Shown: positions 5,501 to 24,000 of the stretch, in pieces | Position numbering within the stretch: position 1 is the first letter of the stretch | How the letters are laid out: each line of letters opens with the position of its first letter | The notes under the pieces: generated by a model | What the model saw: the letters and a program-made list of their open reading frames with translations, nothing else | What the model was told of the DNA's origin: nothing | The model's database searches: none | Translations under genes and position numbers: made by a program | From: an uncultured Candidatus Saccharibacteria bacterium | GTDB taxonomy: Bacteria > Patescibacteriota > Saccharimonadia > Saccharimonadales > JBPEXE01 | Assembly: GCA_964536005.1 (NCBI GenBank) | Contig: CAZHXE010000001.1 | Coordinates: 7,067 to 31,066, forward strand | Length of the DNA stretch: 24,000 bases | Direction of reading: 5' to 3'

Positions 5501-6834
5501 TTATAGCTTTGGCTTGGGAATCCACTCGCACCGTATTTATAGACACCGTTGCCACCGGAGACGCCGTTAGCCAGCGCGGATAAAATGCCACTCGTAACGG
5601 TGTTGTTGCTAAAATAGCTTTCGTTTACGGAGTAGCGGCCTTTTGGTGCATGATACGAAACTACGTAGGTTGTGTTGGCGGCAATCGCGACCGGTGATCC
5701 AAAATTTGCCGTCTGCCAGCCACTCGCTGTTTCGTTTGTGAATGTGACTGTTGCTAGCTTGTTGCCTGCGTTATCCCACAGGTTGCCTACGTGCGTACCG
5801 GTATTGGCGGTACCCTTATAAAACTTAAGCCCCACCACACTTGTTGCCTGTGAGCTCCTAAACTTCATACCCAATTCAACAGCGGCAGTGTCACTGTCGC
5901 TGAGTACTGCGGGCGTTGTAGTGTTTGGCCAAACGCTCGAGGTGCTGAGAGCTGTGTTATTGGTTGATATGGCGACTGGTGAGCTCGTTGCTGTGTTGCC
6001 AGCGGCATCTGTGGCCATGGCTGTGATAGTATGAACGCCATTTGGCAGAAGAGAACTATTCCAGGCAACCGAGTACGGGCTGGTTGTATCGGCGGAGCCC
6101 ACGTTATTGCCATCAACTTTAAATTGAACACTGCTAACACCAACGTTATCGCTGGCATTTGCTGCGAGGTTTATGGTGCCGCTCACTGAGGCGTTGTTAG
6201 CTGGACTTGTAACTGACACAGTTGGTGCCGACGTGTCGCTCGAATTGCTCGTTACTACATCTACCCAATAGTTGCTTTGGTTATAGCTTTGATTTGGGAA
6301 AGCAGAGCTTGAGCCGTATTTATAGACACCATTGCCGCCGTCGGTTCCGCTCTGTAAGGCTGTCAATGTGCCATTAGTGCGAGCTGACGCAAAATATCCT
6401 TCGGTGACTGAGTAATGGCCATTTGGCGCATAATAAGAAATTACGTAGGTTGTATCGGCGGCTATACCGATTGGGCTTGCAAAGCTGGCTTCTTGCCAGC
6501 CGCTGGCCGACTCACTGCCAAATGTGACAGTCGCAAGTTTGTTGCCGGCAGCGTCCCAGAGGTTGCCAACGTGTGTGCCGGTGTTAGCAGTACCCTTGTA
6601 AAATCGTAGGCCGGTGACGGTTGTGGCGACAGAACTTCTGAACTTCGTTCCTAGCTCTACTCCGCTAGTGTCGGGGTCGCTCAGAACAGCTGGCGTATCG
6701 GATGGCGCCCAAATGCTAAGTGCTCTAGATGACTTAGGAAATAAGACTGCAAAACTGCCAAATGACAGCAAGGCAGCCAGTGTAAAAATACTTAGCTTCT
6801 TGCTAAGGTGTTTTTTGCGCTGGCGCAATATCAT
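2575..6834 (-). CDS. giant secreted surface protein: 3x DUF4082-like modules, bacterial Ig-like domains, large central alpha/beta region
   Basis: The ORF-track entry 2575..6882 starts at GTG. The internal ATG at 6834 is preceded by AAAGGGG (SD) 6 nt upstream and gives a classic signal peptide, MILRQRKKHLSKKLSIFTLAALLSFGSFAVLFPKSSRA/LS. Three modules carry the signature ..VELG.KF.S...G.....YKG..NTGTH.G.LWD..G..LA..TF..E.ASGWQ...F..P......TYV.SY....G.YS.......NYWVD. They lie at approx. nt 6250-6720, 5475-5937 and 2578-3015 and match my recollection of DUF4082. Segments such as PTVTEVIPGNNATNVATDTTIAALMSEPIDETTVTTANVTL look like SbsA/Big_5-type Ig domains. Confidence 0.9.
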   Translation of the reverse strand: MILRQRKKHLSKKLSIFTLAALLSFGSFAVLFPKSSRALSIWAPSDTPAVLSDPDTSGVELGTKFRSSVATTVTGLRFYKGTANTGTHVGNLWDAAGNKLATVTFGSESASGWQEASFASPIGIAADTTYVISYYAPNGHYSVTEGYFASARTNGTLTALQSGTDGGNGVYKYGSSSAFPNQSYNQSNYWVDVVTSNSSDTSAPTVSVTSPANNASVSGTINLAANASDNVGVSSVQFKVDGNNVGSADTTSPYSVAWNSSLLPNGVHTITAMATDAAGNTATSSPVAISTNNTALSTSSVWPNTTTPAVLSDSDTAAVELGMKFRSSQATSVVGLKFYKGTANTGTHVGNLWDNAGNKLATVTFTNETASGWQTANFGSPVAIAANTTYVVSYHAPKGRYSVNESYFSNNTVTSGILSALANGVSGGNGVYKYGASGFPSQSYNASNYWVDILVADTSDTTKPTVTEVIPGNNATNVATDTTIAALMSEPIDETTVTTANVTLTNTQTQAVVTSSISYNTSTNAINIVPQAALDAGTSYQASLSTGVKDIAGNSLASAYSWNFTTVTGPATEIDPLSQGHDGPILIVTDNDNPFSAYYSEILRAEGLNSFKTVELADVNSVLLGQYDVVLLGDMALSDNQVTTLTNYVNNGGNLIAMHPDKKLANLLGLTDQASVMSDAYMQVNTSQSPGSGIVGETMQYHGSADNYTAQIGTQTVATLFSSSTATTNNPAVTIRSVGVNGGQAAAFTYDLAKSIVYTHQGNPAWSGDERDGSAPIRPNDLFYGAKVGDVQPDYVNLNKVMIPQADEQQRLLANIIADVNEDSKPLPKLAYFPYNKKAVVVMVADDHATATGTVSALNHQLAESTPGCVVEDWECIRSTSLIYTSTPVADTQALGYYNQGFDFGVHASTGCNDWTPTSLANAYASELADFQAKYTSLPAQHVNRIHCIAWSTYAEGAKIGAAVGLRQDLNYYYWPGSWVQNRPGFMTGSGMNMRYADLDGKLIDTYQLPSHLVNESGQTFPQNINVLLDRALGSEGYYGAFGTHYDYSDQFDRQLVASAKARGVPLVSGQQMLDWTDARNNSYFTNSSWNGSEFSFSATVDAKARSMMRGLMPLSSKNGVLLSLAKDGQNVSFTTETIKGVSYAVFTTTSGTYTASYGQDTTAPIVTSASPTNNATGVNVQTNVEVSFSEPLDSATANNANVQLLDGQTPVAATISYAPANNTIVIDPSSALTPNKTYSVSIATSVTDANGVALAIPYTSQFTAGVTTYSFWAPSPQTVSTITDADVELGIKFTSSQNGAISQIHYYRGASDGLTSHTMTLWDSNGVALGTATTANETASGWQTATFASPINITAGATYTASYRSPTGLYSFTSAGLANPIANGPLSTLVSGGVYRYGGGFPTSSFNNTNYWIDVTLQ

Positions 6835-6853
6835 GCTATACCCCTTTATTGTG

Positions 6854-7144
6854 TTACATAAAGTAGTATATATTACAGACACATCTGTTGGAAAGTGCTA
6901 GCGCTATCCCACGAGCATTGTTGAATCCCTTCGCATTGCTATAGCGACAGATGACTTTGTTTTCGTAAACTTCTGGTTCTTGTAGTGTTATCTGGCCTAG
7001 GTCTTTGGTGTCAATGATTTTGTGGGTTTTGTATCTTTTTGTCCATTTGGTGCTAAACCTGCCCTCGGCGCGATCCCTAAAGCGGGCTTCCGGTGTGCGG
7101 TCTTTGTACCATATAGGTCTTCGTCCCTTGGTGTAGTTTGGCAA
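6854..7144 (-). CDS. hypothetical basic 96-aa ORF (doubtful)
   Basis: The ORF starts at TTG and is Lys/Arg-rich (PNYTKGRRPIWYKDRTPEARFRDRAEGRFSTKWTKRYKTHK...). Its 3' end overlaps the leader/promoter region of the giant gene. I see no SD and recognise no family. It fills an otherwise empty 300-bp gap, so it could be a gene remnant. Confidence 0.2.
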   Translation of the reverse strand: MPNYTKGRRPIWYKDRTPEARFRDRAEGRFSTKWTKRYKTHKIIDTKDLGQITLQEPEVYENKVICRYSNAKGFNNARGIALALSNRCVCNIYYFM

Positions 7145-9988: not shown

Positions 9989-11689
9989 ATGCTGTTGTTA
10001 CTCGGAGCGTTCATAGCTGGCATACTCACTGTGCTGGCACCGTGCGTATTGCCTCTGTTACCGATCATCATTGGAGGCTCGGTTTCAGGAGATGAAGCTG
10101 ACAAAAAACGACCACTATATATCACTGCTTCGCTTGCCCTGTCGTTGTTAGTCTTCACCCTACTGCTGAAGGCAACGACAGTGCTCATTGGTGTTCCGCC
10201 AGAGTGGTTTGCGTACATATCCGGCATTATCATCGTAGCCCTTGGCATATTCACGCTCTTCCCTTCTTTATACGCAACATTTTTAGCCAAAGTGGGCATT
10301 GAGTCTAAAGCCCTTAGCTTCTTAAGCAAAGGTCAGAAACAATCTAACCCAATGTTTGGCGCCATACTTACTGGTGCGGCCCTCGGACCGGTTTTTTCAA
10401 GCTGCAGCCCAGTCTATGGCTACATACTCGCCACTGTTTTACCGGTGAATTTCTCGCTGGCCATGCTGTACATGAGCGCCTACATCTTAGGACTGAGTTT
10501 TGTGTTGCTCCTGATTGGCTATTTCGGGCAGCGCTTTATTAAAAAAATCAGTTGGATGAGTAACCCTAAGGGTGCGTTTCAGCGTCTTATTGCTGTTTTG
10601 TTTATTATTGTTGGTCTGATGGTCTTCACTGGGCTTGATAAGGACTTTCAGGCCTTTATCTCGCGCAACACGCCGTTTAATATCGATGCGCTGAGCGCCA
10701 AATTAATTCCAGCCAGCCAAAGAGAGTACAAAGACGGCGAACTCCTTAACGTAGACCCCTACCCTGCCCCAGAATTTGCTGGGCTCGAGGATTGGATTAA
10801 CAGTGAACCTCTGACACTAGAGAGTTTGCGGGGACAAGTTGTACTGGTCGACTTTTGGACCTACAGTTGCATTAACTGCGTGCGCAATAACCCGTATATT
10901 GAAGGTTGGTATCAGCAATATAAGGACGACGGCTTTACGGTCATCGGTGCGCACGCGCCGGAGTTTGCGTTTGAGCGTAACGTTGAAAATGTCCAAAAGG
11001 CCGTGAGGGATCAAAACATAAGCTACCCGGTTGCGCTCGATAACGACTTCAGCACATGGGGCGCGTTTGAAAACCAGTTTTGGCCAACCTACTACCTAAT
11101 CGACGCCCAAGGAAACGTGCGACGAATCCATAGCGGCGAGGGCGAATATCGAGAGTCCGAGCAAGCTATTCGACAACTTTTGACCGAGAACGGCGCGTTC
11201 TTGTCGGACGACGAGATTACAACTGAAGGAGACGCCGTTGACTACATTACTAAGCAGCAAACACCCGAGACGTATCTTGGCCTAAAGCGAGCCAGCAACT
11301 TTGCAAGCAAGGAACCACTTGGCAGCGGCGGCCCATTTACGTCACCGGCGAAGCTTGCTTCAAACCAATGGAGCCTAAGCGGCAAATGGGACGTGGGTAA
11401 TGAAACGATCACATCGTCAGAAGACTCGGCCAAGCTTGCATTTAATATTCGTGCCAAAGCGGTGTATGTGGTCGCGTCTTCAGAGTCTGGCAATCAGATA
11501 AAAGTTTTGGTTAATGGCCAGCCAGCGAATGGCAGCAACGCAGGCAGCGACGTCAAAAATGGCGCCGTAACGGTGCAGGAAGCAAGGCTGTATCGGCTGG
11601 TTGAGTTTGACCAATTTCAGGAGTCAATTAATTTGGAGCTAACCGTCCCTAAGGGCGTTTCGCTTAATGTATTTACGTTTGGAAGTTAA
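9989..11689 (+). CDS. dipZ: DipZ-like fusion: CcdA/DsbD-type thiol-disulfide transporter + thioredoxin-like domain + C-terminal beta-rich domain
   Basis: The N-terminal polytopic part has the two conserved membrane Cys (LTVLAPCVLPLLP and GPVFSSCSPVYGY). The thioredoxin-like part contains VVLVDFWTYSCINCVRNNPYI (CxxC) and ...FWPTYYLIDAQGNVR. A ~150-aa C-terminal extension follows. This three-part architecture matches mycobacterial DipZ as I recall it. Confidence 0.85.
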   Translation: MLLLLGAFIAGILTVLAPCVLPLLPIIIGGSVSGDEADKKRPLYITASLALSLLVFTLLLKATTVLIGVPPEWFAYISGIIIVALGIFTLFPSLYATFLAKVGIESKALSFLSKGQKQSNPMFGAILTGAALGPVFSSCSPVYGYILATVLPVNFSLAMLYMSAYILGLSFVLLLIGYFGQRFIKKISWMSNPKGAFQRLIAVLFIIVGLMVFTGLDKDFQAFISRNTPFNIDALSAKLIPASQREYKDGELLNVDPYPAPEFAGLEDWINSEPLTLESLRGQVVLVDFWTYSCINCVRNNPYIEGWYQQYKDDGFTVIGAHAPEFAFERNVENVQKAVRDQNISYPVALDNDFSTWGAFENQFWPTYYLIDAQGNVRRIHSGEGEYRESEQAIRQLLTENGAFLSDDEITTEGDAVDYITKQQTPETYLGLKRASNFASKEPLGSGGPFTSPAKLASNQWSLSGKWDVGNETITSSEDSAKLAFNIRAKAVYVVASSESGNQIKVLVNGQPANGSNAGSDVKNGAVTVQEARLYRLVEFDQFQESINLELTVPKGVSLNVFTFGS

Positions 11690-11710
11690 AAAATTTAAGA
11701 GAGGAATCAA

Positions 11711-11959
11711 ATGGAAGTAACCATGTATTCAACCAAGTTGTGCGCCGCGTGCCATATGCTTACAAAATGGCTGGAAGACAAGTCGGTCGACTACACAAAG
11801 AAGCTGGTAGATGAAGACGAGCAAGCCATGGAAGAGTTCATGTCACTGAATGACGGCGCAATTGGTGTGCCTTTTACGGTCATAACCAACGAAAGTGGAG
11901 TGCATAAAATTACTGGGTTTGATAATGCTAGGTTGGGAGAGTGTTTGGCTTTGGGTTAG
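11711..11959 (+). CDS. glutaredoxin/NrdH-like small redoxin
   Basis: 82 aa with SD AGAGGAA upstream. MYSTKLCAACHMLTKWL carries a CxxC motif at the start of helix 1. ...GVPFTVI... is the cis-Pro region typical of the glutaredoxin fold. Confidence 0.8.
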   Translation: MEVTMYSTKLCAACHMLTKWLEDKSVDYTKKLVDEDEQAMEEFMSLNDGAIGVPFTVITNESGVHKITGFDNARLGECLALG

Positions 11960-12023
11960 GTTGCTTGAAGTGTGGGGCTGCGCGCATCTTTGTCAGAACA
12001 AACATTTTATGCTGTAGTAGCTA

Positions 12024-13696: not shown

Positions 13697-15220
13697 TTAA
13701 GGTAGTTCAGCGATACGATCTGGCAACATCTTTGTAAATAAAGGAACGTTGAAGTTCCAACCAGCATTGTAGTTAATTTTTGATGTTACTTCGACTGCGG
13801 CTTCATACGCTTTTTGTAATTCGCCCACAGACTTCATGCCAAACATAGCTGAAATCTCGTCTGCACGTGATTTTGATATAAGCTCACCTAGTGGGTCAAT
13901 CAATTCCTCACTTCTATGGCTGTATACGGACAAGCGCGGGAACCACCAGTTATACCTGTTGTCGGGAAAATTGAACCTAGTCAGTAGGTACAGCAAACTG
14001 TCAGCATTGCGTAATTCGTCAAAGTCTAAGCCATCAAACTTAACTGCGTGCTCTTTTTGTATGTCTGCCGCAACACTGACACGGTTGAGGTTCAGCCTAC
14101 TATTTCTATAGTCATCCAGTGTTCGCATGTGCTGGTAGAAATCTGTAAAGGTCACAGCACGTAATTCGCCAAGGTGTGTTTTATAGAAGTAAGTCCTGTT
14201 AATCAGATTATGCACTACGCTGAAACGTCTGTGTTTGACTAACAAAGCCACAATACCCGTTGCAAGCTCGTGAACAACAAAACCGACGTTCTCGTAGTCG
14301 CTGTCACGCCAGGAGTTCACTCCAGGCAGCGGTGCTTGCTTGGCTTTAGCTGAGGTTAATAGTTTATCTATTTCTTCGGTCAATTTTTTATCATCGAGCT
14401 GACCATTCATAAGTAGCCCATCCAGTTCGTTAAGCATTGCGTTGGTGTATGGCTGCATAGATTCAATGCTCTCTAGTACTTTTTCGTCCACAGGTGTGTC
14501 GCCAGCTCCAACTTTCCTCAGCTTATCGAGTGCTTGAAGAAATGTTGCAGTAACTGCCTGGAGTCCAGAACGTGGTTTCTCTGCGTCAACCTGCTGCTCG
14601 GCTGTCTTTGGCAGCTTTTCGGCTGGATGCTTAGCTGTGCCTGTGAATGTTGGGATAGATCCAAGTACTGGCTTTACATACTTTGGCTGATTGTAGATGT
14701 GCCTAATAAGGTCATCGAAGTTTGCGTCAAACTGCGATTCGTCTGTGAAGTCGATGTAATGCCGTGATTTCATATACGTTGGTAAGCACGGTTTACCGTC
14801 CTGATTACGCTCAAATACTAGAGGAACTACTTTTGTCTGGTCAATCTTTTCATACACCTCAGGGCTAATCAGCTGCGTCTCCGTGCCTACGCCACCTCTT
14901 CGAGCATCTGCTTTTTCGGCATACTTTTTGTCCGCTATGACGAGTACGTGAGTGACGGCTTTGTCTGTCACTGATTGCTCCATAAATTTGTTCAGTTCGT
15001 GTCCTGGCTTGTTGTCGTAGATGTCAAGAATTACATCAATACCCTTGCCAAGCAATCTATCAGCAAACAACCTAACTCGCTCCTTGTGTTCTGGGTCGGA
15101 CCAGGCGTAAGACAAGAATGCCTTAGGGTGCTCGGTGCTACCCTGTGCGATTGACTTTAGCGCACCATCATCTGGTTTTAGTTTCTTATCATCATCTGTC
15201 TTATTAGGTTTGTTAGCCAT
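13697..15220 (-). CDS. SEFIR/TIR-like domain protein with uncharacterised ~320-aa C-terminal domain (candidate anti-phage NADase-type effector)
   Basis: 507 aa. Residues ~33-175 read AFLSYAWSDPEHKERVRLFADRLLGKGIDVILDIYDNKPGHELNKFMEQSVTDKAVTHVLVIADKKYAEKADARRGGVGTETQLI...VVPLVFERN...HYIDFTD. This matches my recollection of the bacterial SEFIR/TIR (flavodoxin-like) signature: F.SY.W, GIDV.LD, FMEQS, GGVG.E. The C-terminal part is helical-looking and carries no motif I recognise. Confidence 0.8.
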   Translation of the reverse strand: MANKPNKTDDDKKLKPDDGALKSIAQGSTEHPKAFLSYAWSDPEHKERVRLFADRLLGKGIDVILDIYDNKPGHELNKFMEQSVTDKAVTHVLVIADKKYAEKADARRGGVGTETQLISPEVYEKIDQTKVVPLVFERNQDGKPCLPTYMKSRHYIDFTDESQFDANFDDLIRHIYNQPKYVKPVLGSIPTFTGTAKHPAEKLPKTAEQQVDAEKPRSGLQAVTATFLQALDKLRKVGAGDTPVDEKVLESIESMQPYTNAMLNELDGLLMNGQLDDKKLTEEIDKLLTSAKAKQAPLPGVNSWRDSDYENVGFVVHELATGIVALLVKHRRFSVVHNLINRTYFYKTHLGELRAVTFTDFYQHMRTLDDYRNSRLNLNRVSVAADIQKEHAVKFDGLDFDELRNADSLLYLLTRFNFPDNRYNWWFPRLSVYSHRSEELIDPLGELISKSRADEISAMFGMKSVGELQKAYEAAVEVTSKINYNAGWNFNVPLFTKMLPDRIAELP

Positions 15221-16237: not shown

Positions 16238-16437
16238 CTGGCTACAAACCAACAAAAAATGATGTGCAGTTGTTGATTAACTGGCTAAAAGAGCACGATC
16301 CCGAAAACGCCAATGAAGAGGTAGCCAAACAGATGTTGGTTGATCTTAAGCTTAGTTTTCGCGCCATTGGTCTGAGTGATCCCGATTCTCTTGAAGATTT
16401 TTATCAATCTTTTATAGCTAATCGTACAAAAGACTAA
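16234..16437 (+). CDS. hypothetical 67-aa acidic protein, translationally coupled to the HKD nuclease
   Basis: There is an ATGA overlap: the ATG at 16234 overlaps the nuclease TGA at 16235-16237. The sequence MTGYKPTKNDVQLLINWLKEHDPENANEEVAKQMLVDLKLSFRAIGLSDPDSLEDFYQSF is helical-looking and Asp/Glu-rich, with no recognised family. Confidence 0.6.
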   Translation: MTGYKPTKNDVQLLINWLKEHDPENANEEVAKQMLVDLKLSFRAIGLSDPDSLEDFYQSFIANRTKD

Positions 16438-16649
16438 AACGGTAAAATGTCCGAGGACTCGATCTTCAAAGCCTTAGTTATTCTGTAAAGAGAATCGAGA
16501 GAAGGTAGTGAATCTCCCCTTTCTAGCCGCGCATAGTAATTCTTGTTTAAATCTGCCTTGTCGGCAAGTTGTGCCTGTGTAAGCCCGCTGTTGCTTCTAG
16601 CTTTTTTTATGTTCGCGGCTATAGCAGCTTGTTGTTTGCTGTTGATCAT
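16434..16649 (-). CDS. XRE-family helix-turn-helix transcriptional regulator
   Basis: 71 aa. GLTQAQLADKADLNKNYYARLERGDSLPSLDSLYRITKALKIESSDIL is a canonical HTH_3 (Cro/C1) domain. Its 3' end overlaps the convergent 67-aa ORF by 4 nt. Confidence 0.9.
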   Translation of the reverse strand: MINSKQQAAIAANIKKARSNSGLTQAQLADKADLNKNYYARLERGDSLPSLDSLYRITKALKIESSDILPF

Positions 16650-16652
16650 GTT

Positions 16653-16946
16653 TTATCTTCTCTCTAAGTTCTGTAAAATTTCACGATGACGCATGCGATC
16701 TCGTTTTTCTTTGCGTTGGCTTCTTCTGAGCAACCTGTAAGGTATCAGGAAAATGCCAAATAACATGTACCAGCCAATCACGAATAGCCAAGCGATTAAT
16801 ATAAGCGCTAGTGCTATCGGCACAAACAAAAGATACTTCAAAAGTATATTTTTAACATCTGTAATCTTCCATATTCGTGCAGCACTACCACTGAAGGACA
16901 GCGGTGAGCTTATAACCACCTTTTCACTTGGTAATTTATTGGGCAT
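16653..16946 (-). CDS. small 2-TM membrane protein, upstream partner of the XRE regulator
   Basis: 97 aa with an ATG start. It has two hydrophobic helices (LLKYLLFVPIALALILIAWLFVIGWYMLFGIFLI) followed by a strongly basic tail (RRSQRKEKRDRMRHRE). Its stop lies 3 nt before the XRE ATG. Confidence 0.6.
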   Translation of the reverse strand: MPNKLPSEKVVISSPLSFSGSAARIWKITDVKNILLKYLLFVPIALALILIAWLFVIGWYMLFGIFLIPYRLLRRSQRKEKRDRMRHREILQNLERR

Positions 16947-17215: not shown

Positions 17216-17239
17216 TTGCCACAACAAACGGAGGTACGT

Positions 17240-17590
17240 ATGGTTTCTAATAAACTTCGGATCATTGTGGCTTTGGTGGCTGCATTTGGTCTGCCACTAC
17301 TACTCTCTGATGCAGCATTTGCCCAAGAAGCAACAGCGGCTGGCGTTGGACAAGTTGAGAACTTTATCCGTAGTGTCATCCAAGTGGTTGCAGGGTTGTC
17401 CGGTCTGATTGCGACCGGATTTTTTGTTGTTGGAGGGTTCGGGTATATAACATCATCAGGTAATCCAGAGGTGCTGCAGAAATCAAAACGCACAATTTTC
17501 TACTCTGGCATGGGTCTAGCAATAACAATCGGTGCGTTTATTTTAAGCAACATAGTTACTTCTTTAGCTACAAACGCGTTCGGAGCGTAG
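17240..17590 (+). CDS. TrbC/VirB2-like T4SS pilin
   Basis: The ORF-track entry starts at 17216, but the ATG at 17240 has GGAGG (17230-17234) 5 nt upstream. The signal peptide is MVSNKLRIIVALVAAFGLPLLLSDAAFA/QE. Two hydrophobic helices flank a short polar loop (GGFGYITSSGNPEVLQKSKRT), the topology typical of VirB2/TrbC pilins. It is the first gene of a T4SS operon. Confidence 0.75.
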   Translation: MVSNKLRIIVALVAAFGLPLLLSDAAFAQEATAAGVGQVENFIRSVIQVVAGLSGLIATGFFVVGGFGYITSSGNPEVLQKSKRTIFYSGMGLAITIGAFILSNIVTSLATNAFGA

Positions 17591-17599
17591 TTTTCTCTA

Positions 17600-18910
17600 A
17601 TGGATTCGCTAGTTGCCCTTAGTTCTTGGGTGGCTAACTTCGCAGTAGTGAATGCAGACATTCAAAACTACTTGCGGCCTATTATGGTCGCGTTGATTAG
17701 TCTGGCAGGCGTAGCGAGCGCATTTTTCTTAGTACTTGGTGGGTTTGAGTACATGACGAGTTCTGGCAAGCCAGATAAGTTAGAGCATGCCAAAAAAGTG
17801 TTACGCAATGCACTGATTGGGTTATCTATGGTGATTGCAGCCGGAGCATTAACAGCGATTTTGACGAGTGCTTATACCGAGACGGGTGGCTCATCCACTC
17901 TTGAAAGCGTGCCCGTACTGCAACCTGCCGAAATAAACGATGAAGGCGGCGGCGTTACCGAAGTGCTCATTAACTCTATTATTGGATTGTTTAAGCATTT
18001 TGTAGATTCTGCTGCCTCGCCAATTATTAATGCGGTTGATCACTTTACCAAAAACACTCCGCTCATGGCAGACAACAAAGGTGTACTGAATCTGTGGCTG
18101 GGTGTGCTTGGTATCTCAAATGCTCTTCTGGTACTTGTCGTGGCGTTACTAGGGTTCCAAGTTATGAGTGCGGCATCGCTTGGACTTGATGAAATTGAGT
18201 TTAAGCATCTGTTACCGAAGATAGGCGCAACGTTTCTGATTATGAATATGTCGATATTTGCTATCGATGCAGTGATAAGCCTCACCAATGTCATGATATC
18301 CGCCATAGCTAGCGCTACTGGTACACAGACTGTGTTTAACACGCTTTCTGATGTGATGAGTGATGCGGGCAAGCAAGGTTTGGTATCGCTACTTCTTATG
18401 ATCGTATTCATAGTACTCTCTGTTTTGTTATTAGTTTACTACGTCGTTCGCGTCGTTACTTTGTATGTTGGTGCTGTCCTGTCGCCAATGGTAGTGCTTT
18501 TGCAGCTAGTTCCTGGATTCCGCGACTTTACTACCCTAGCGGTGAAAGCTTACATATCAACGATTTTTAATCTATTTGTGCACGTAATAATCCTGGCAAT
18601 TGCTGCAACACTTTTTGTTGGATTAGCAGGGCCGGACGAATCAGGCTATAACCCGCTCATGTCACTTGTTGGAGGAATTGCGGCTATATTCACACTGCTC
18701 AAAACCCAGCAAGTCATGATGCAGTTGAGTTATGCCAGCAACGGATCCCGAGCTTTGCGTAAAATGGGAACTGAATTTATCAGCGGTATTAGCTACATGG
18801 CTGAGCGGCGCAGGCGTCAAAGTGATGACATTGATTCAAGCAGTGGTGCGGGAAATGGAAATAGTACGACATCACGTAAACCAAAACCAGTTAAAGAGGG
18901 ATATCAATGA
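17600..18910 (+). CDS. VirB6/TrbL-like polytopic membrane protein with an N-terminal pilin-like module
   Basis: 436 aa. Residues ~20-95 (IQNYLRPIMVALISLAGVASAFFLVLGGFEYMTSSGKPDKLEHAKKVLRNALIGLSMVIAAGAL) align with the preceding pilin (VENFIRSVIQVVAGLSGLIATGFFVVGGFGYITSSGNPEVLQKSKRTIFYSGMGLAITIGAFIL). The remainder has 5-6 further TM helices and a polar Ser/Gly/Lys tail, as in VirB6/TrbL/PrgH-type proteins. Confidence 0.75.
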   Translation: MDSLVALSSWVANFAVVNADIQNYLRPIMVALISLAGVASAFFLVLGGFEYMTSSGKPDKLEHAKKVLRNALIGLSMVIAAGALTAILTSAYTETGGSSTLESVPVLQPAEINDEGGGVTEVLINSIIGLFKHFVDSAASPIINAVDHFTKNTPLMADNKGVLNLWLGVLGISNALLVLVVALLGFQVMSAASLGLDEIEFKHLLPKIGATFLIMNMSIFAIDAVISLTNVMISAIASATGTQTVFNTLSDVMSDAGKQGLVSLLLMIVFIVLSVLLLVYYVVRVVTLYVGAVLSPMVVLLQLVPGFRDFTTLAVKAYISTIFNLFVHVIILAIAATLFVGLAGPDESGYNPLMSLVGGIAAIFTLLKTQQVMMQLSYASNGSRALRKMGTEFISGISYMAERRRRQSDDIDSSSGAGNGNSTTSRKPKPVKEGYQ

Positions 18911-19416
18911 AAACAACCATAGTGCCAGCTCAAATTACATCCGTCGAAGACAAAGTCGTCGGCAATATATCTGTTAAACAGCTACTTTTGCTTATGTCAC
19001 CTGTTTTTTTGGGAGTCGTCATTTTTGCATTCTTGCCCCCATTTATCAAATATACAACTTTGAAACTTGCCATCGTTTCTACCATCGTGACTGTTTGTTC
19101 TGTATTGGCGATTCGTTGGCGCGGCAAGCTTGTTGCTGAGTGGATCGCAATTATGAGTCGTTACAACTCACGACCCCGCCACTACGTATACAGCAAAAAG
19201 GATTCGTTTCTTCGTCCTAAGCATTCTTCTGCAAAACGTATTGAGCTAGAAGTCCCAATAGTTGCAGAAGAACAGCCAGAAACCGATTTTGCAGCGAAGC
19301 TAGCCCCATCAGAATTCGTAAGACTCGAACATGCAATAGAAAATCCGGCAGCAAATTTTAGGTTCAGCGTTACCCGTAAAGGAGGCCTCCGTGTCCATAT
19401 TAAAGAAATCCGTTAA
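18907..19416 (+). CDS. PrgI-family (VirB3-like) T4SS membrane protein
   Basis: It has an ATGA overlap with the upstream gene. VPAQITSVEDKVVGNISVKQLLLLMSPVFLGVVIFAFLP followed by a second TM helix matches my recollection of the PrgI family. Its position immediately upstream of VirB4 is as for VirB3. Confidence 0.7.
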   Translation: MKTTIVPAQITSVEDKVVGNISVKQLLLLMSPVFLGVVIFAFLPPFIKYTTLKLAIVSTIVTVCSVLAIRWRGKLVAEWIAIMSRYNSRPRHYVYSKKDSFLRPKHSSAKRIELEVPIVAEEQPETDFAAKLAPSEFVRLEHAIENPAANFRFSVTRKGGLRVHIKEIR

Positions 19417-20002
19417 ACCACTAAGCTCTCGTCGGCAAATTCGAATCGAGGGCGTGCATGACGGTATCCTCATACTGCCGAACGGCGAGTACAGACTTGC
19501 CTTAGAAACATCGTCTATCAATTTTGAGCTTATGAGCGAAACAGAGCAGGATGCGATTATCGACACGTATCAGAGTTTTTTGAATTCACTCAATACGCCG
19601 TTTCAAATTCTTGTGAGAGTACGCGAACTTGATATGGATAAATACATTAGTTCGTTTCGTGAAAATCAAACATCGTCAGATGAAGAAGCTTTTACCGACC
19701 AAACTACGAGCTATACCCAATTCGTGAAAGGATTGGTCAGTGATAACAAGATTCTAACTCGCAGTTTCTATGTTGTTTTACCTTATAGTTCGAATGGCAA
19801 AGACTTTGAAGTAGTGAAAGAGCAGCTAAAACTAACGGGCGACATTGTAAGCAAAGGCTTAGGGCGTATGGGAATGCAGTCGCGCAGGCTATCGAGTCTT
19901 GAAGTGCTTGATCTGTTCTATAGTTTTTATTCTCCAAAACAAGCTAAACGACAGCCACTCACCGAGCAAACACTGTCTATGCTAAAGGAGAGCTACCTAT
20001 GA
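19391..20002 (+). CDS. VirB4-like ATPase, N-terminal domain encoded as a separate ORF
   Basis: The GTG start at 19391 has AAAGGAGG 5-6 nt upstream. RRQIRIEGVHDGILILPNGEYRLALETSSINFELMSETEQDAIIDTYQSFLNSLNTPFQILVRVRELDMDKYI resembles the N-terminal region of Gram-positive VirB4 homologues (PrgJ/TcpF/CD1110-type). 203 + 583 aa together approximate a full-length VirB4. Confidence 0.7.
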   Translation: MSILKKSVKPLSSRRQIRIEGVHDGILILPNGEYRLALETSSINFELMSETEQDAIIDTYQSFLNSLNTPFQILVRVRELDMDKYISSFRENQTSSDEEAFTDQTTSYTQFVKGLVSDNKILTRSFYVVLPYSSNGKDFEVVKEQLKLTGDIVSKGLGRMGMQSRRLSSLEVLDLFYSFYSPKQAKRQPLTEQTLSMLKESYL

Positions 20003-21750
20003 GCATTGAAATGTTGTTAAACCCAAAGCAGACGTTGAAAGATTGGCAGCAAAAGAGAGCTGAGGAGCCGAAAAACTTTACATTTGATTATGGCCAGCAA
20101 GACCCTATGGACATCATTAGCTACGCAGGGCTGGAAGAACAAGCAGATCACTTGGTGATCGATGGTCGCTACATTAGAAGCCTATACATATCTGGATATC
20201 CTTTTGTAGCACATTCTGGCTGGCTTAATAGCTTGATTAACTTTAACAGCAATATAGATATTAGTTACCACATGAGCCAGGTTGAAGCGACTCAGGCACT
20301 GCCTAAACTTAACCGTAAAATCACTGAGCTTGAGAGTACGAAACGAGCCATGATCCGCTCTGGAAAAATTGTTGGGCCTGAAGTTACCGACCCTCTAGAT
20401 TCCGCAATGGAATTACGTGACAAAATCCAACGTGGCCAAGAAATGCTGTTTCAGGCAGCAATATATGTTTCTTTGAGTGCTGATAGTTTAGAGGAACTTG
20501 AAAAGCTAACAACTTTGCTTGAAACAACACTGTCGGCGCGATTGTTTTTTACCAAGACTGCACGTTACCAGCAGGTAGAAGCACTGCAAGCTGTGCTACC
20601 TAGGGCAGAAGATCGATTAGAACAGCGACGCAACCTAGATAGTTCATCTGCTGCTCTGACTTTCCCTTTTATGAGTAGTGAGATGGTACACGAAAAAGGT
20701 ATTCTGTACGGTGTTAACAAATCCAATAACTCACTTGTAATCTTAGATCGGTTTAGTTTACACAATGCTAATTCAATCATATTCGCGCAAAGTGGTTCTG
20801 GCAAAAGTTACGCAAGTAAAGTTGAAATTTTGCGCCAATTGATGCAGGGTACCCATGTAATCGTTATTGACCCAGAACGTGAATATAAACTGTTAAGTGA
20901 AAAGGTTGGTGGCAGTTACATCAAGCTTTCTACAAACTCACAGCAGAAAATAAATCCGTTTGATCTATCCTCTACTACAAACAGTAAACGTGATTTGAGT
21001 GAGCATATTCAAGACTTAACTGAGATTGTGAGTTTGATGGTGGATGGTCTGAGCCCTAAAGAAAAGGCATCTTTAGACAAAGCGCTGATAAATCTATATA
21101 AACGGAGCGATGACAACAAACCCCTTCTCAAGGATCTGTACCACGAATTGCGATTACTCGACCAAGCAAAGTTAACTGAAAGATTGGAACGTTTTGTAAG
21201 TGGATCTTTATCTGACGTATTTAACAATCAAAGCAATGTGAGCTTAGATAACAAACTGGTAATTTTTGATATCAAAGACATGCCTGAAAGCATGCGCCAA
21301 CTAATGATCCTGATTATTTCACATCATGTTCAAAATGAAGTTAAGAACAATCCCCGCAAGAGACTGCTAGTTATTGATGAAGGCTGGTTGTTGTTGGAGC
21401 ATGAAGAGTCGGCACGATTTATTGCAGGATTAGTACGGAGAGCTCGAAAATATTACCTTGGCGTTTCAATCATCACCCAGCAAGCGAACGACTTTTTGAA
21501 AAACGATTACGGAAGAGCCATAGCGTCCCAAAGCGCACTACGTATTTTGATGCGGCAGGATACCACAACCATTAAAAATGTCGTAAACGAATTTAATTTG
21601 AGCGAGTATGAAGACAACTTTTTACTGACTTGTGATAAAGGCGATGCCCTTATTATCGCAGATCAAAATCATGCGGCAGTGCGTGTAGTAGCGTCTAAAG
21701 AAGAACACCCCCTCATAACTACTAATCCTCAAGAACTCTATGGATTATGA
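19999..21750 (+). CDS. virB4: VirB4-like T4SS ATPase (C-terminal ATPase part)
   Basis: It has an ATGA overlap with the preceding ORF and AAGGAG (19985-19990) 8 nt upstream. Walker A is AQSGSGKSY (GSGKS at nt 20794-20808) and Walker B is RLLVIDEGW. The following ...GLVRRARKYYLGVSIITQQ region is typical of the VirB4/DUF87 family. Confidence 0.92.
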   Translation: MSIEMLLNPKQTLKDWQQKRAEEPKNFTFDYGQQDPMDIISYAGLEEQADHLVIDGRYIRSLYISGYPFVAHSGWLNSLINFNSNIDISYHMSQVEATQALPKLNRKITELESTKRAMIRSGKIVGPEVTDPLDSAMELRDKIQRGQEMLFQAAIYVSLSADSLEELEKLTTLLETTLSARLFFTKTARYQQVEALQAVLPRAEDRLEQRRNLDSSSAALTFPFMSSEMVHEKGILYGVNKSNNSLVILDRFSLHNANSIIFAQSGSGKSYASKVEILRQLMQGTHVIVIDPEREYKLLSEKVGGSYIKLSTNSQQKINPFDLSSTTNSKRDLSEHIQDLTEIVSLMVDGLSPKEKASLDKALINLYKRSDDNKPLLKDLYHELRLLDQAKLTERLERFVSGSLSDVFNNQSNVSLDNKLVIFDIKDMPESMRQLMILIISHHVQNEVKNNPRKRLLVIDEGWLLLEHEESARFIAGLVRRARKYYLGVSIITQQANDFLKNDYGRAIASQSALRILMRQDTTTIKNVVNEFNLSEYEDNFLLTCDKGDALIIADQNHAAVRVVASKEEHPLITTNPQELYGL

Positions 21751-22373
21751 TCCCGATCGCTTCATGGCTTCTCAAAAACTCTAAAACCGAGATTAAGTTA
21801 GTTCTTGCAACCATTGCACTATTGATTACCTTGCCAGCTCTTAGCGTTGTGGTTGTCGCTAGCTCAGGCATTCAGCTTGTTGGCGATGCAATAGCAGCAG
21901 TAAATCCAGTCACCCATCTTGTGGAGATATTTGGGCCGAACGGTGATAAGGTCGATGAGATTGAGCTGTCGACAACATGGCCAGTAAGCGGTACAGTTAC
22001 TGACGAGTTCGGCACAAGTGAAACATGGCGCCGACTACTTGGGCTCGGTTACCACACTGGAATAGACATAACTAATGCTATGTACACACCCATTACACCT
22101 TTTACCAGTGGAACAGTGCTTGCAGTGGATAATACTGATGATTCAGCATGCGGTAAAAGTATAACTATTAAGCATACTGATCGTCTCAAGTCGCAGTATT
22201 GTCACTTGGATTCAGCCGTTGAGTACGCAGTTGACTCACCTGTGGTGCCAGGGGATGTTATTGGCTATCTTGGCAGTACCGGTACTTCAACAGGTCCGCA
22301 TTTGCACTTTATGATTTATGTTTATGGTATTCCTGTTAACCCAAGGACGTTTATGGTAGGTGAGCCGAATTAG
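21747..22373 (+). CDS. M23-family (LytM-type) peptidoglycan metallopeptidase, T4SS-associated
   Basis: It has an ATGA overlap with virB4 and an N-terminal TM helix. M23 motifs are present: YHTGIDI (HxxxD) and GSTGTSTGPHLHFMIY (HxH). Confidence 0.9.
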   Translation: MIPIASWLLKNSKTEIKLVLATIALLITLPALSVVVVASSGIQLVGDAIAAVNPVTHLVEIFGPNGDKVDEIELSTTWPVSGTVTDEFGTSETWRRLLGLGYHTGIDITNAMYTPITPFTSGTVLAVDNTDDSACGKSITIKHTDRLKSQYCHLDSAVEYAVDSPVVPGDVIGYLGSTGTSTGPHLHFMIYVYGIPVNPRTFMVGEPN

Positions 22374-22402: not shown

Positions 22403-22966
22403 CTAGTAAAATTTTGAATCAAAATTAAAGAGTATTGCAACTAATATAAGTAGATATGAAATAACTCCCACTGACAGAAATATAATTTGAATATATAGCC
22501 ATTTTTTAGGAGTTTTTACTGGAGGAACTTCAAGAATTTCGTCTGTCCTTTCTCTGGCCTCACTTAATGACTCGAATTTAACTTCACTAAAAAGTTTAAC
22601 TACTTCATTCAACTTTTCCGCCCAATTAAAGTTGAATTTAACTATTTCAAAGTAGTATTTAATTCCGGACATAATAGACAAAATGTACGATGTTACTCCC
22701 GTTAAAATAAGTATCTTTTGTATTGCTGATAATTTCTCCGCTTCACTCACGTTGCTAAGCAATATAACAGATGCTGATAACAAAACAGTAGTTATAAGTA
22801 GCAGCTGGCTGCATGCTACACGCTCGGTTTCGTTTTCTTCATTCAAAGATCTATCGCGTTGTGCGATATATTCGAATCTAGAACTGGAGATATAGGAAAT
22901 TATATCCTTATCAGTGAGGTCAAGTTTTTTGATTTTTGGTCTTGCTCTAGCTTTGGTAGGCAACAT
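22403..22966 (-). CDS. hypothetical 3-TM membrane protein (very AT-rich)
   Basis: The ORF-track entry 22403..22975 starts at TTG, with the first ATG at 22966 (MLPTKARARPK...). The three hydrophobic helices are LLLITTVLLSASVILLSNV, ILILTGVTSYILSIMSGI and WLYIQIIFLSVGVISYLLILVAILF. I recognise no family. Confidence 0.6.
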   Translation of the reverse strand: MLPTKARARPKIKKLDLTDKDIISYISSSRFEYIAQRDRSLNEENETERVACSQLLLITTVLLSASVILLSNVSEAEKLSAIQKILILTGVTSYILSIMSGIKYYFEIVKFNFNWAEKLNEVVKLFSEVKFESLSEARERTDEILEVPPVKTPKKWLYIQIIFLSVGVISYLLILVAILFNFDSKFY

Positions 22967-22971
22967 AATAC

Positions 22972-23109
22972 TCAATCATCTTCTTCGTCTTCGCTAACAT
23001 CGTCCTCGCTGTCATCTGATGGCTCTACCGGGGCCATTGCCATCGGTGTTGGAAAGTTTGAGCCTTTTATAACTCTAGATGGTTGGCTCGGGTTTTCTGT
23101 ATCACTCAT
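22972..23109 (-). CDS. possible 45-aa acidic micro-ORF upstream of the membrane protein (speculative)
   Basis: Not in the ORF track because it is too short. The reverse complement reads ATG AGT GAT ACA GAA AAC ... = MSDTENPSQPSRVIKGSNFPTPMAMAPVEPSDDSEDDVSEDEEDD*. Its stop (22972-22974) abuts the start of the next gene. I see no SD. The + strand ORF 22859..23116 is its Ser-rich antisense. Confidence 0.25.
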   Translation of the reverse strand: MSDTENPSQPSRVIKGSNFPTPMAMAPVEPSDDSEDDVSEDEEDD

Positions 23110-23298: not shown

Positions 23299-24000
23299 TT
23301 ACAAAATCACTTCTTCCTGTGGAAGTCTGTGAATTAGCTTTTCACCTTCGTTGCGCGAATTGCCGACTTCACTGCTAACTGGGTAGATTTCCAAACCGTC
23401 ATCGTCGTATGGCTTGAGGAGATCAGCAATCGACTCGGGTGTTTCGTTAGATGGCTCTAGCCAGCGTTCTTCATCGTCTGGCTTTAATATGACTGGCATT
23501 CTATCGTGAAGGTCGCTCATTTCTTTATTAGGCGTCGTCGTTAAAATTGAAAACGACTCTATAACTTCCCCTGTTGCTTTATCCGTCCACTGGGAATATA
23601 CCCCAGCCATCGCAAACAGGTCACTATCTTTTGGACGGATGAAATAAGGCTGCTTCTTGCTGCCGTCCTTCTTCCACTCATAGAAACCGTTTGACGGTAC
23701 TAAGCAGCGTGCATGTAACACTGGTCGCTTCCAAGTATTCTTTTCAAATACAGATTCGCTACGAGCATTGATAAGTTTGTAACCAATACTCACATCTTTT
23801 GCCCACACTGGAATAAGGCCCCATCGCATAGGCATCAGATGTCTTTTGTCTTCAGCCTTGATAACTACCGGCAGATTTTGTCCAGGAGCAGCATTGTAAC
23901 GTTCTCGTAAGTGCTCAAGTAACTCATCGAGCTCTTGGTCACTAACTTTAAAACGCCGAGCAAGCTCACCAGTTTGGAATATTGTGTATCGTCCGCACAT
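23299..24000 (-). CDS. SOS-response-associated peptidase (SRAP/YedK/HMCES family)
   Basis: The N-terminus MCGRY (catalytic Cys2) sits exactly at the window edge. NAAPGQ, MRWGLIPVWAK, INARSE, RCLVPSNGFYEW and AMAGVY are SRAP-family landmarks as I recall them. Confidence 0.9.
   Translation of the reverse strand: MCGRYTIFQTGELARRFKVSDQELDELLEHLRERYNAAPGQNLPVVIKAEDKRHLMPMRWGLIPVWAKDVSIGYKLINARSESVFEKNTWKRPVLHARCLVPSNGFYEWKKDGSKKQPYFIRPKDSDLFAMAGVYSQWTDKATGEVIESFSILTTTPNKEMSDLHDRMPVILKPDDEERWLEPSNETPESIADLLKPYDDDGLEIYPVSSEVGNSRNEGEKLIHRLPQEEVIL

Follow-up and report, generated by a model that had tools for sequence, protein, structure and literature searches.

Gene content and organization of the operon

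The 24-kb window analyzed here, meaning the whole stretch at positions 7,067–31,066 of contig CAZHXE010000001.1 from an uncultured Candidatus Saccharibacteria bacterium, carries a row of six plus-strand open reading frames (ORFs) for components of a type IV secretion system (T4SS). The locus is very probably one more instance of the T4SS with which Saccharibacteria and other Patescibacteria sustain their epibiotic lifestyle, and a gene for a coupling-type ATPase lies just beyond the window. The six ORFs are listed below in window coordinates, as are all other ORF positions unless stated otherwise.

17240–17590, plus strand: VirB2/TrbC-like pilin, 116 aa; Pfam TrbC 34.3 bits (cutoff 27.9), T4SS_pilin 32.8 bits, NCBIfam Mbov_0395 pilin-like 39.2 bits
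17600–18910, plus strand: VirB6/TrbL-like polytopic membrane protein, 436 aa; Pfam T4SS_pilin (residues 21–85) plus TrbL_4 (residues 120–387), 28.7 against a cutoff of 27
18907–19416, plus strand: PrgI/VirB3-like small membrane protein, 169 aa; Pfam PrgI 33.8 bits (cutoff 27); two hydrophobic segments
19391–20002, plus strand: TrsD-like protein, 203 aa, corresponding to the N-terminal domain of VirB4 but encoded by a gene of its own; precomputed match PF26593 TraC-like
19999–21750, plus strand: VirB4 ATPase, 583 aa, with the C-terminal motor domain and part of the N-terminal region
21747–22373, plus strand: M23 metallopeptidase, 208 aa, membrane-anchored; Pfam Peptidase_M23 80 bits; catalytic motifs HTGID and HLH; transmembrane segment 19–37

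A separate, independent gene caller, applied to the Logan contig that matches the window (L063, 22.9 kb), returned the same six boundaries; this contig extends ~16 kb past the window and brings the total view to ~40 kb. Three gene junctions are ATGA overlaps (18907–18910, 19999–20002, and 21747–21750), and the PrgI-like and TrsD-like ORFs share 26 nt; these overlaps are signals of translational coupling. Shine–Dalgarno-like GGAGG/AAGGAG motifs lie ahead of the starts at 17240, 19391, and 19999; an alternative in-frame TTG start at 17216 is possible for the first ORF. A convergent 190-aa ORF on the minus strand begins 29 nt beyond the operon end. An earlier note on this stretch had reported these ORFs, their coordinates and overlaps, the convergent gene at the operon end and the order VirB2, VirB6, PrgI/VirB3, VirB4, M23, all of which agree with the ORF list, the gene caller, and the family scans. 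Scans for consensus promoters and terminators over the operon and the DNA that follows it were uninformative (18 promoter-like sites against 26.6 in shuffles; no terminator flanking the operon). Rfam, tRNA, and tandem-repeat scans gave nothing relevant, with no tRNA gene in the window as an integration target.

A scan of genome collections yielded 60 loci, nearly all from metagenome-assembled genomes (MAGs) of Saccharibacteria. The five core genes stand in constant order in essentially all loci with enough flanking sequence, and the gene order is conserved in ~45 Saccharibacteria loci, far above chance. The TrsD-like, PrgI/VirB3, VirB6, and VirB2-like genes beside virB4 recur in 32–51 loci.

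In the VirB2-like protein, an N-terminus resembling a signal peptide precedes two hydrophobic helices (hydrophobic segments at 8–26, 46–64, and 85–103). Its gene, with GGAGG 6 nt ahead of the ATG, is conserved in at least 32 loci. The VirB6-like protein has six hydrophobic segments, and its residues 1–100 (17600–17900) are paralogous to the pilin encoded next to it (34% identity, E 2e-16). The pilin–VirB6 fusion recurs in 44 loci. Where any pilin match was obtained (45 loci), all but one locus have exactly two such segments, a free pilin and the one joined to VirB6; the clade thus lacks a pilin array, unlike the oral Saccharibacteria Candidatus Southlakia epibionticum and Nanosynbacter lyticus TM7x.

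The earlier note had read the TrsD-like ORF and its neighbor as a VirB4 in two ORFs. Both ORFs are real, and the first is a TrsD-like gene in its own right. Its product aligns to positions 11–173 of the 752-position CD1110 VirB4 model (E 6e-13) and to the TrsD/TraD family (E 5e-10), both NCBIfam matches below the curated cutoff, and a separate trsD-like gene stands immediately 5′ of virB4 in 50 loci. A frameshifted pseudogene was ruled out as an explanation, since a split kept in 50 loci, in the TrsD/VirB4 arrangement known from pGO1, is not a broken gene and fits the known TrsD family. With 350.9 bits in NCBIfam conju_CD1110 (model positions 189–729), the VirB4 itself clears the equivalog cutoff of 325; it also matches Pfam P-loop_TraG (84 bits), AAA_10, and DUF87 and has its Walker B motif LLVIDE at residue 456. 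The M23 protein is the cell-wall hydrolase of the system, an analogue of VirB1.

Placement of VirB4 and search for conjugation genes

More than 6000 homologs of VirB4 were recovered. The top ones are 74–99% identical and, where named, come from Saccharibacteria/Saccharimonadales MAGs, which bears out the assignment to a T4SS of the type found in Saccharibacteria and the Candidate Phyla Radiation (CPR). Identity is 63–92% to VirB4s of Saccharibacteria, ~40% to those of other CPR bacteria, and at most 39% to ten plasmid, archaeal, and proteobacterial references. Against at least 5000 plasmid VirB4s it does not exceed 37%; the best match is of the monoderm CD1110 type, with the CD1110-type and Actinobacterial proteins closest, archaeal ones next, and MPF-F and MPF-T (mating-pair formation types F and T) furthest. 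By the conju_CD1110 model the protein is of FATA type; the NCBIfam runners-up were the VirB4 of a Mycoplasma integrative and conjugative element (ICE; 281 bits), TraC-F (195 bits), and VirB4_CagE (120 bits), and TcpF (MPF-FA) reached only 46 bits.

A neighbor-joining tree placed the window VirB4 in a tight Saccharibacteria clade (189 of 200 bootstraps), sister to that of L064, and outside the characterized conjugative clades; the earlier note had named a VirB4 inside such a clade as evidence against its reading. Monophyly of all CPR VirB4s was not recovered (25/200), so this tree is no independent test of the published Patescibacteria clade, and the deeper node rests on the maximum-likelihood tree of PMC12102498.

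No match to VirD4, a relaxase, VirB8, or an adhesin was found inside the window. By the Pfam matches of the main ORFs, the ~40 kb in view hold no relaxase, integrase, VirB8-like protein, or adhesin, in keeping with the view that this is not a classical conjugation module.

A coupling-type ATPase beyond the window

The earlier note had described a "minimal six-ORF" operon with no coupling ATPase, relaxase, VirB8, or adhesin. That absence holds inside the window, and for the last three across the ~40 kb as well, but ~1.7 kb beyond the window end and 3.3 kb 3′ of the M23 gene, on the operon strand, lies a gene for an 845-aa ATPase resembling type IV coupling proteins (T4CPs). The note had also named a VirD4 and a relaxase just outside the window, in one element, as the mark of an ordinary ICE: a VirD4-like gene is there, a relaxase and an ICE are not. 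The features 3′ of the operon are as follows.

From 22374, running past the window end, no strand assigned: inserted block of 3,298 bp between the M23 gene and the T4CP-like gene
22403–22975, minus strand: 190-aa protein with two transmembrane segments, in the inserted block, convergent to the operon
23299–24000, minus strand: SRAP (YedK-like) protein, in the inserted block
L063 6825–8405, strand not given: ORF of 103 aa and a Y-family polymerase in two pieces (IMS and IMS_C ORFs), in the inserted block past the window
Projected window position 25672–28209 (L063 8513–11050), plus strand: T4CP-like ATPase, 845 aa, outside the window

The 845-aa protein passes Pfam TrwB_AAD_bind (27.9 against 20.5) and T4SS-DNA_transf (22.4 against 20.1) and falls narrowly below the cutoff of TraG-D_C (21.1 against 22). 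TrwB is its sole PDB sequence match. It has Walker A (GGTGNGKT) at residue 427 and Walker B (YLYVDE) at residue 680, and at more than 150 columns that are invariant in the family it keeps the conserved residue; the gene is intact here despite its displacement. In Foldseek, its AlphaFold model (mean pLDDT 74) matches TrwB (probability 1.0, target TM-score 0.56–0.63) and also Cagbeta, DotL, HerA, and VirB4. Matches to HerA and VirB4 are expected within this ATPase superfamily. On plasmids, its nearest relatives come from Bacillaceae, Streptomycetaceae, Sulfolobus, and haloarchaea and carry T4CP-type annotations. A protein annotated by NCBI as a T4CP and encoded directly after virB4 on an Embleya plasmid shares 30% identity with it (E 2e-52).

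The N-terminal half consists of one hydrophobic helix and a ~350-aa DUF8128 domain (residues 33–398; L063 8609–9700), followed by the nucleotide-binding domain (NBD). This differs from the canonical T4CP layout of a two-helix membrane anchor directly before the NBD together with an all-alpha domain; a helical insertion (residues 502–631) sits where the all-alpha domain would be. Folded alone (pLDDT 76), the DUF8128 domain matched only VirB4/TrwK chains in the PDB (top 14; E 8e-5 to 6e-3; TM-score ~0.4). In hhalign this N-terminal domain gave no significant match to the TrsD and VirB4 families of these loci (probability ≤1.3%), and the ATPase half aligned to VirB4 with 26% probability, round the P-loop only. 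On the predicted fold, which the sequence profiles do not support, DUF8128 may be a VirB4-N-terminal-like domain carried on a coupling-type ATPase. Because of the single helix, the DUF8128 domain, and scores below the curated NCBIfam T4CP cutoffs, we call the protein a coupling-type ATPase of the VirD4/VirB4 superfamily, with a VirD4/TrwB-like C-terminal half, and not a textbook VirD4. It probably belongs to the same family as the published T4CP homolog of Patescibacteria, a link drawn from layout and not from sequence comparison: SEML1_0293 of Southlakia has 921 aa and a TrwB domain from about residue 402, and both proteins thus have a ~400-aa N-terminal extension.

A seventh operon gene in relatives and a probable insertion in this genome

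Neighbors were counted in the 40 loci with at least 3.5 kb of sequence 3′ of virB4. A homolog of the 845-aa protein lies on the same strand in 34 of them, 550–770 nt past the virB4 end and one small gene later; six relatives have no adjacent copy, and more distant CPR loci (VirB4 38–42% identical) have no T4CP-like neighbor. At loci L064, L065, and L066 the T4CP-like gene begins 13 nt after the M23 gene. The closest long-contig relative (255-kb contig, VirB4 89–92% identical) has all seven genes contiguous, with this 13-nt spacing. The slot between virB4 and the T4CP-like gene is taken by M23 in 14 loci and by a CHAP-domain hydrolase in others (L012 11740–12276, L031 10354–10962, and L036 11749–12234). 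Both proteins are small and membrane-anchored, and the slot has stayed fixed while one wall hydrolase was exchanged for a non-orthologous one.

Same-strand adjacency in 34 of the 40 loci and the 13-nt spacer indicate that the operon of this clade has seven genes and that in this genome the 3,298-bp insertion parts genes six and seven; judged from gene order, this is the parsimonious reading. "Minimal" and "no coupling ATPase" are thus artefacts of the window edge and of a lineage-specific insertion. The 190-aa protein and SRAP are absent at that position in all relatives. Gene loss in the relatives was considered in place of insertion here and rejected on parsimony, given the 34/40 adjacency; the 7.9-kb contig of a 90%-identical relative, which also appears to carry both genes, counts against it too. 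Direct or inverted repeats round the block amount to short, chance-level matches, and alignment of the junction DNA with L064 gave no clean breakpoints.

As to its content, the inserted block (SRAP, 103-aa ORF, and split Y-family polymerase) resembles a decayed DNA-damage-tolerance cassette.

Flanking genes

Other genes of the window, 5′ of the operon, are as follows.

16653–16946, minus strand: 97-aa single-pass membrane protein, divergent from virB2; hydrophobic segment 39–57
16434–16649, minus strand: XRE-family HTH protein just upstream of the operon, on the opposite strand; Pfam HTH_3 50 bits
15713–16237, plus strand: PLD-family nuclease with a single HKD motif, similar to MkoC/DrmC nuclease domains
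13697–15220, minus strand: TIR/SEFIR protein, 507 aa; PADLOC bSEFIR anti-phage model 307 bits
12279–13259, minus strand: 326-aa ORF beside the bSEFIR gene; no family match
2575–6882, minus strand: DUF4082/Big_5 surface protein, 1435 aa

An XRE homolog lies a few kb 5′ of virB2 in 14 related loci and is adjacent and divergent in L003, L041, and L045; by its position the protein is a candidate local regulator. A homolog of the 97-aa membrane protein, for which the profile scans gave no family match, adjoins virB2 in eight related loci, and its membership in the system is uncertain. In 20 related loci a PLD-family nuclease gene accompanies the T4SS operon, mostly 5′ of virB2; together with the XRE gene it may be a defense gene or be functionally linked to the T4SS. 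The rest of the window (17 kb) also encodes MarR, fasciclin, and DsbD-thioredoxin proteins.

GC content is ~0.50–0.54 in the first 11 kb and drops to ~0.39–0.45 from 11500–12000 onward, the T4SS operon included; we could not tell an island boundary from gene-specific composition. Further 3′ of the 845-aa gene, L063 carries YgjP, a type I restriction–modification system, and DUF2958. At L063 12109–20082 are HsdR, HsdS, and HsdM and a second HsdS fragment, with the gene for an AriAB/PARIS-like ATPase (PADLOC 259 bits, DUF4435) inserted after hsdS and before hsdM. In the closest relative another defense set occupies the corresponding place, so this is a variable island bounded by DUF2958.

Proposed function and alternative explanations

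Taken together, the locus is very likely a pilus-type, monoderm T4SS, presumably chromosomal, derived from MPF-FATA systems and characteristic of Saccharibacteria and other Patescibacteria, that serves the epibiotic lifestyle. Wang et al. 2023 found by transposon sequencing (Tn-seq) that the T4SS genes of Southlakia (pilins, PrgI, TrsD-like, VirB4, and hydrolases) are essential for epibiotic growth (PMC10633639); such a requirement is known from that Tn-seq only. In the mechanism we propose, the membrane-anchored hydrolase would locally open the epibiont's own wall, and TrsD/VirB4 would dock on the membrane adaptor PrgI/VirB3 and the channel protein VirB6. Powered by this motor, pilin would be extracted and polymerized to form a pilus or conduit that reaches towards the host bacterium. 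The pilin-like head of VirB6 may prime or cap this polymerization, and the coupling-type ATPase would present substrate to the channel. Such a machine would serve the epibiotic lifestyle and not the transfer of a plasmid or ICE. Protein, in the form of effectors acting on the host, is a more likely substrate than relaxase-piloted DNA; delivery of protein or effectors, or a contact conduit to the host, is favored over DNA conjugation because there is no relaxase and because in Southlakia competence, which requires ComEC, can be separated from the essential role of the T4SS (PMC12857230). Relaxase-independent DNA transport is still to be reckoned with as a minority reading, since the family of the operon-linked ATPase is related to DNA translocases.

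Several points weigh against this account. In Southlakia the homologous-looking T4CP (SEML1_0293) is encoded apart from the T4SS and is non-essential (PMC12102498), which weakens the case for the T4CP as an obligatory machine part. The T4CP-family profile matches of the 845-aa protein span only ~70 residues round the P-loop, and it scores below every curated NCBIfam T4CP cutoff (SXT_TraD 47.9 against 366; CD1115 25.6 against 250). The best Foldseek E-values of its full-length model go to VirB4 (TrwK) and not to VirD4, so it could be a second VirB4-like motor in place of a substrate receptor. The chromosomal location is suggested by relatives with the same operon on contigs of 255–832 kb; the source contigs here span only 23–31 kb and have no replication or partition gene in view. 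Co-transcription is read from the gene overlaps only. The mechanism is drawn from established T4SS biology (R388 and Gram-positive models); function and substrate do not come from this analysis.

An ordinary conjugative element, with the relaxase and integrase of an ICE or plasmid module encoded elsewhere on it, would agree with a VirB4 that passes the cutoff of the "conjugal transfer ATPase, CD1110 family", with a T4CP-type ATPase at the locus, with a GC content lower than in the first 11 kb of the window, and with flanking defense genes typical of variable islands; the nearest relatives outside the CPR, on Embleya and Streptomyces plasmids, even carry a replication-relaxation gene after their T4CP. 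Yet no relaxase, Replic_Relax homolog, integrase, or tRNA was found in ~40 kb, nor in any Saccharibacteria locus, and the T4SS block stays put while its flanks vary. The VirB4 groups with those of many Saccharibacteria species at 63–92% identity, and a survey of Patescibacteria found relaxases in only 103 of 3,035 genomes and almost no transfer of VirB4 between classes (PMC12102498). We consider such an element very improbable. A chance somewhat better, but still small, belongs to the view that the six genes form a self-sufficient pilus or adhesion machine with no translocated substrate and that the downstream ATPase is unrelated and exapted. The separation of that gene here by 3.3 kb and two opposite-strand genes, the unlinked and non-essential homolog of Southlakia, the exaptation of T4CPs raised for Patescibacteria (PMC12102498), and the six of 40 relatives with no adjacent copy would all fit; same-strand adjacency in the other 34, with a spacer down to 13 nt, speaks instead for a shared function in the clade, the displaced gene is intact with all its catalytic motifs, and the pairing of VirB4 with a T4CP recurs in the nearest Actinobacterial relatives.

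DNA as the cargo of a relaxase-independent machine of the Ced/ComB kind, importing host DNA for nucleotides or recombination or exporting DNA with the T4CP-like ATPase as motor, is likewise improbable, if a shade less so. The ATPase falls in DNA-translocase-related families (TrwB "DNA-binding domain", TraD; weak CedD/CedB matches of 37/19 bits), its nearest plasmid relatives include T4CP-type proteins of Sulfolobus and haloarchaea, its gene is operon-linked in 34 of the 40 clade loci, VirB4 itself has weak CedB/CedD matches, and Saccharibacteria are unable to make nucleotides (PMC10633639). The Ced scores, however, are far under the cutoffs of 600–700 bits, and the operon holds no conserved DNA-processing gene. 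Competence in Southlakia depends on comEC, the deletion of which abolishes competence and leaves the cells viable, as summarized in PMC12857230, whereas its T4SS is essential and its T4CP homolog is not. More speculatively, the ancestral machine of Patescibacteria may have been a relaxase-independent translocator coupling nucleic acid or other substrates between epibiont and host, and may still be so in this clade, with the oral lineages (Southlakia and TM7x; ATPase unlinked and dispensable) derived. An ATPase that would join a VirB4-N-terminal-like domain to a TrwB-like motor and has relatives on Actinobacterial, Firmicute, and archaeal plasmids is in line with this idea, which we hold to be unlikely on the whole, though the least so of these alternatives.

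Against these alternatives we retain the epibiotic T4SS as the best explanation. Few molecular machines are known to be indispensable to the epibiotic life of these ultrasmall bacteria, and the Patescibacteria T4SS is among them; a whole Saccharibacteria clade with an operon-borne coupling-type ATPase bears on the published view that the coupling protein is lacking or exapted. The machine is at its most compact in this clade, with a single pilin, a pilin–VirB6 fusion, and a small, interchangeable M23 or CHAP hydrolase, which makes it a good target for structure prediction or reconstitution. The false "absence" from a window-limited reading is a caution for calls based on missing genes.

Comparison with known systems

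Systems of this type have been published before, and the window adds a further instance and no new kind (PMC7427843, PMC10633639, PMC12102498, PMC12857230). The earlier note had said that comparable clusters were "noted" in Saccharibacteria; they are indeed known, but this understates the case, as they have been analyzed in depth (PMC12102498) and are essential in Southlakia (PMC10633639). McLean et al. 2020 described a VirB4/VirB6/VirB2 region across Saccharibacteria (PMC7427843), and a 2025 review treats the Patescibacteria systems as a new branch of the T4SS superfamily (PMC12857230).

The locus does not belong with the DNA-import systems (archaeal Ced, H. pylori ComB): CedB reached 48 bits (cutoff 700) and CedD 28–37 bits (cutoff 600), and no ComB-type VirB7/9/10 was found. 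The MPF-FATA systems of Gram-positive bacteria (pGO1 Trs with TrsD/TrsE, pIP501/pCF10, and C. difficile CTn2 with the VirB4 CD1110 and the T4CP CD1115) are among the closest known. The window VirB4 passes the CD1110 cutoff, and the likeness extends to PrgI, VirB6, a wall hydrolase, a monoderm envelope, and no VirB7/9/10; pGO1 also has a separate TrsD-like gene, as in the window. Unlike those systems, the one described here has a VirB2-like pilin and has no relaxase, PrgB-type adhesin, or VirB8-like PrgL/TraM. Its VirB4 is only 25–39% identical to theirs, and its type is probably chromosomal and is lineage-wide, whereas theirs are borne on mobile elements.

Among the best matches outside the CPR are the clusters on Embleya and Streptomyces linear plasmids (NZ_CP108778, NZ_CP081497), with 30–33% identity in VirB4 and 30% in the T4CP. 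Their order is similar (VirB6-like, PrgI(-TrsD), VirB4, T4CP), with a cell-wall hydrolase nearby. No VirB2-like pilin was detectable in them by this search, and, unlike in Saccharibacteria, a gene of the replication-relaxation family stands directly after the T4CP; no homolog of the Embleya replication-relaxation protein was found in the window or any Saccharibacteria locus. The Embleya plasmid also encodes a "PrgI family" protein of 349 aa (L067 5335–6384), the C-terminal half of which aligns to the Saccharibacteria TrsD, and this alignment suggests a PrgI–TrsD fusion.

Also among the closest known systems are those of Candidatus Southlakia epibionticum ML1 (SEML1_0006–0019; PMC10633639) and TM7x (PMC7427843), from the same phylum and likewise with no relaxase, which share the core order of pilin(s), VirB6-like, PrgI, TrsD-like, VirB4, and cell-wall hydrolase(s). 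Southlakia has 14 T4SS genes against six or seven here, a six-pilin array against one free pilin and the pilin–VirB6 fusion, two VirB6-like proteins of ~1000 aa each against one of 436 aa, and a 1113-aa peptidase and a lysozyme against the small M23 protein (CHAP in relatives). The window system is without an NTF2/VirB8-like gene, unlike Southlakia. The T4CP gene is operon-linked in the window clade; in Southlakia it lies ~270 kb away.

In their analysis of 3,035 genomes, Quinonero-Coronel et al. 2025 found a Patescibacteria VirB4 clade nested in MPF-FATA, with TrsD, VirB3/PrgI, VirB6, VirB2, and M23-containing hydrolases encoded near virB4 (PMC12102498). All of these components are present in the window, which shares the MPF-FATA affinity and has no relaxase. 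Only 148 of 5,713 T4CP homologs in Patescibacteria lay near virB4 in that survey (PMC12102498). The window clade, with the gene adjacent in 34 of 40 loci, belongs to this minority, and in the present genome the two have been secondarily separated.

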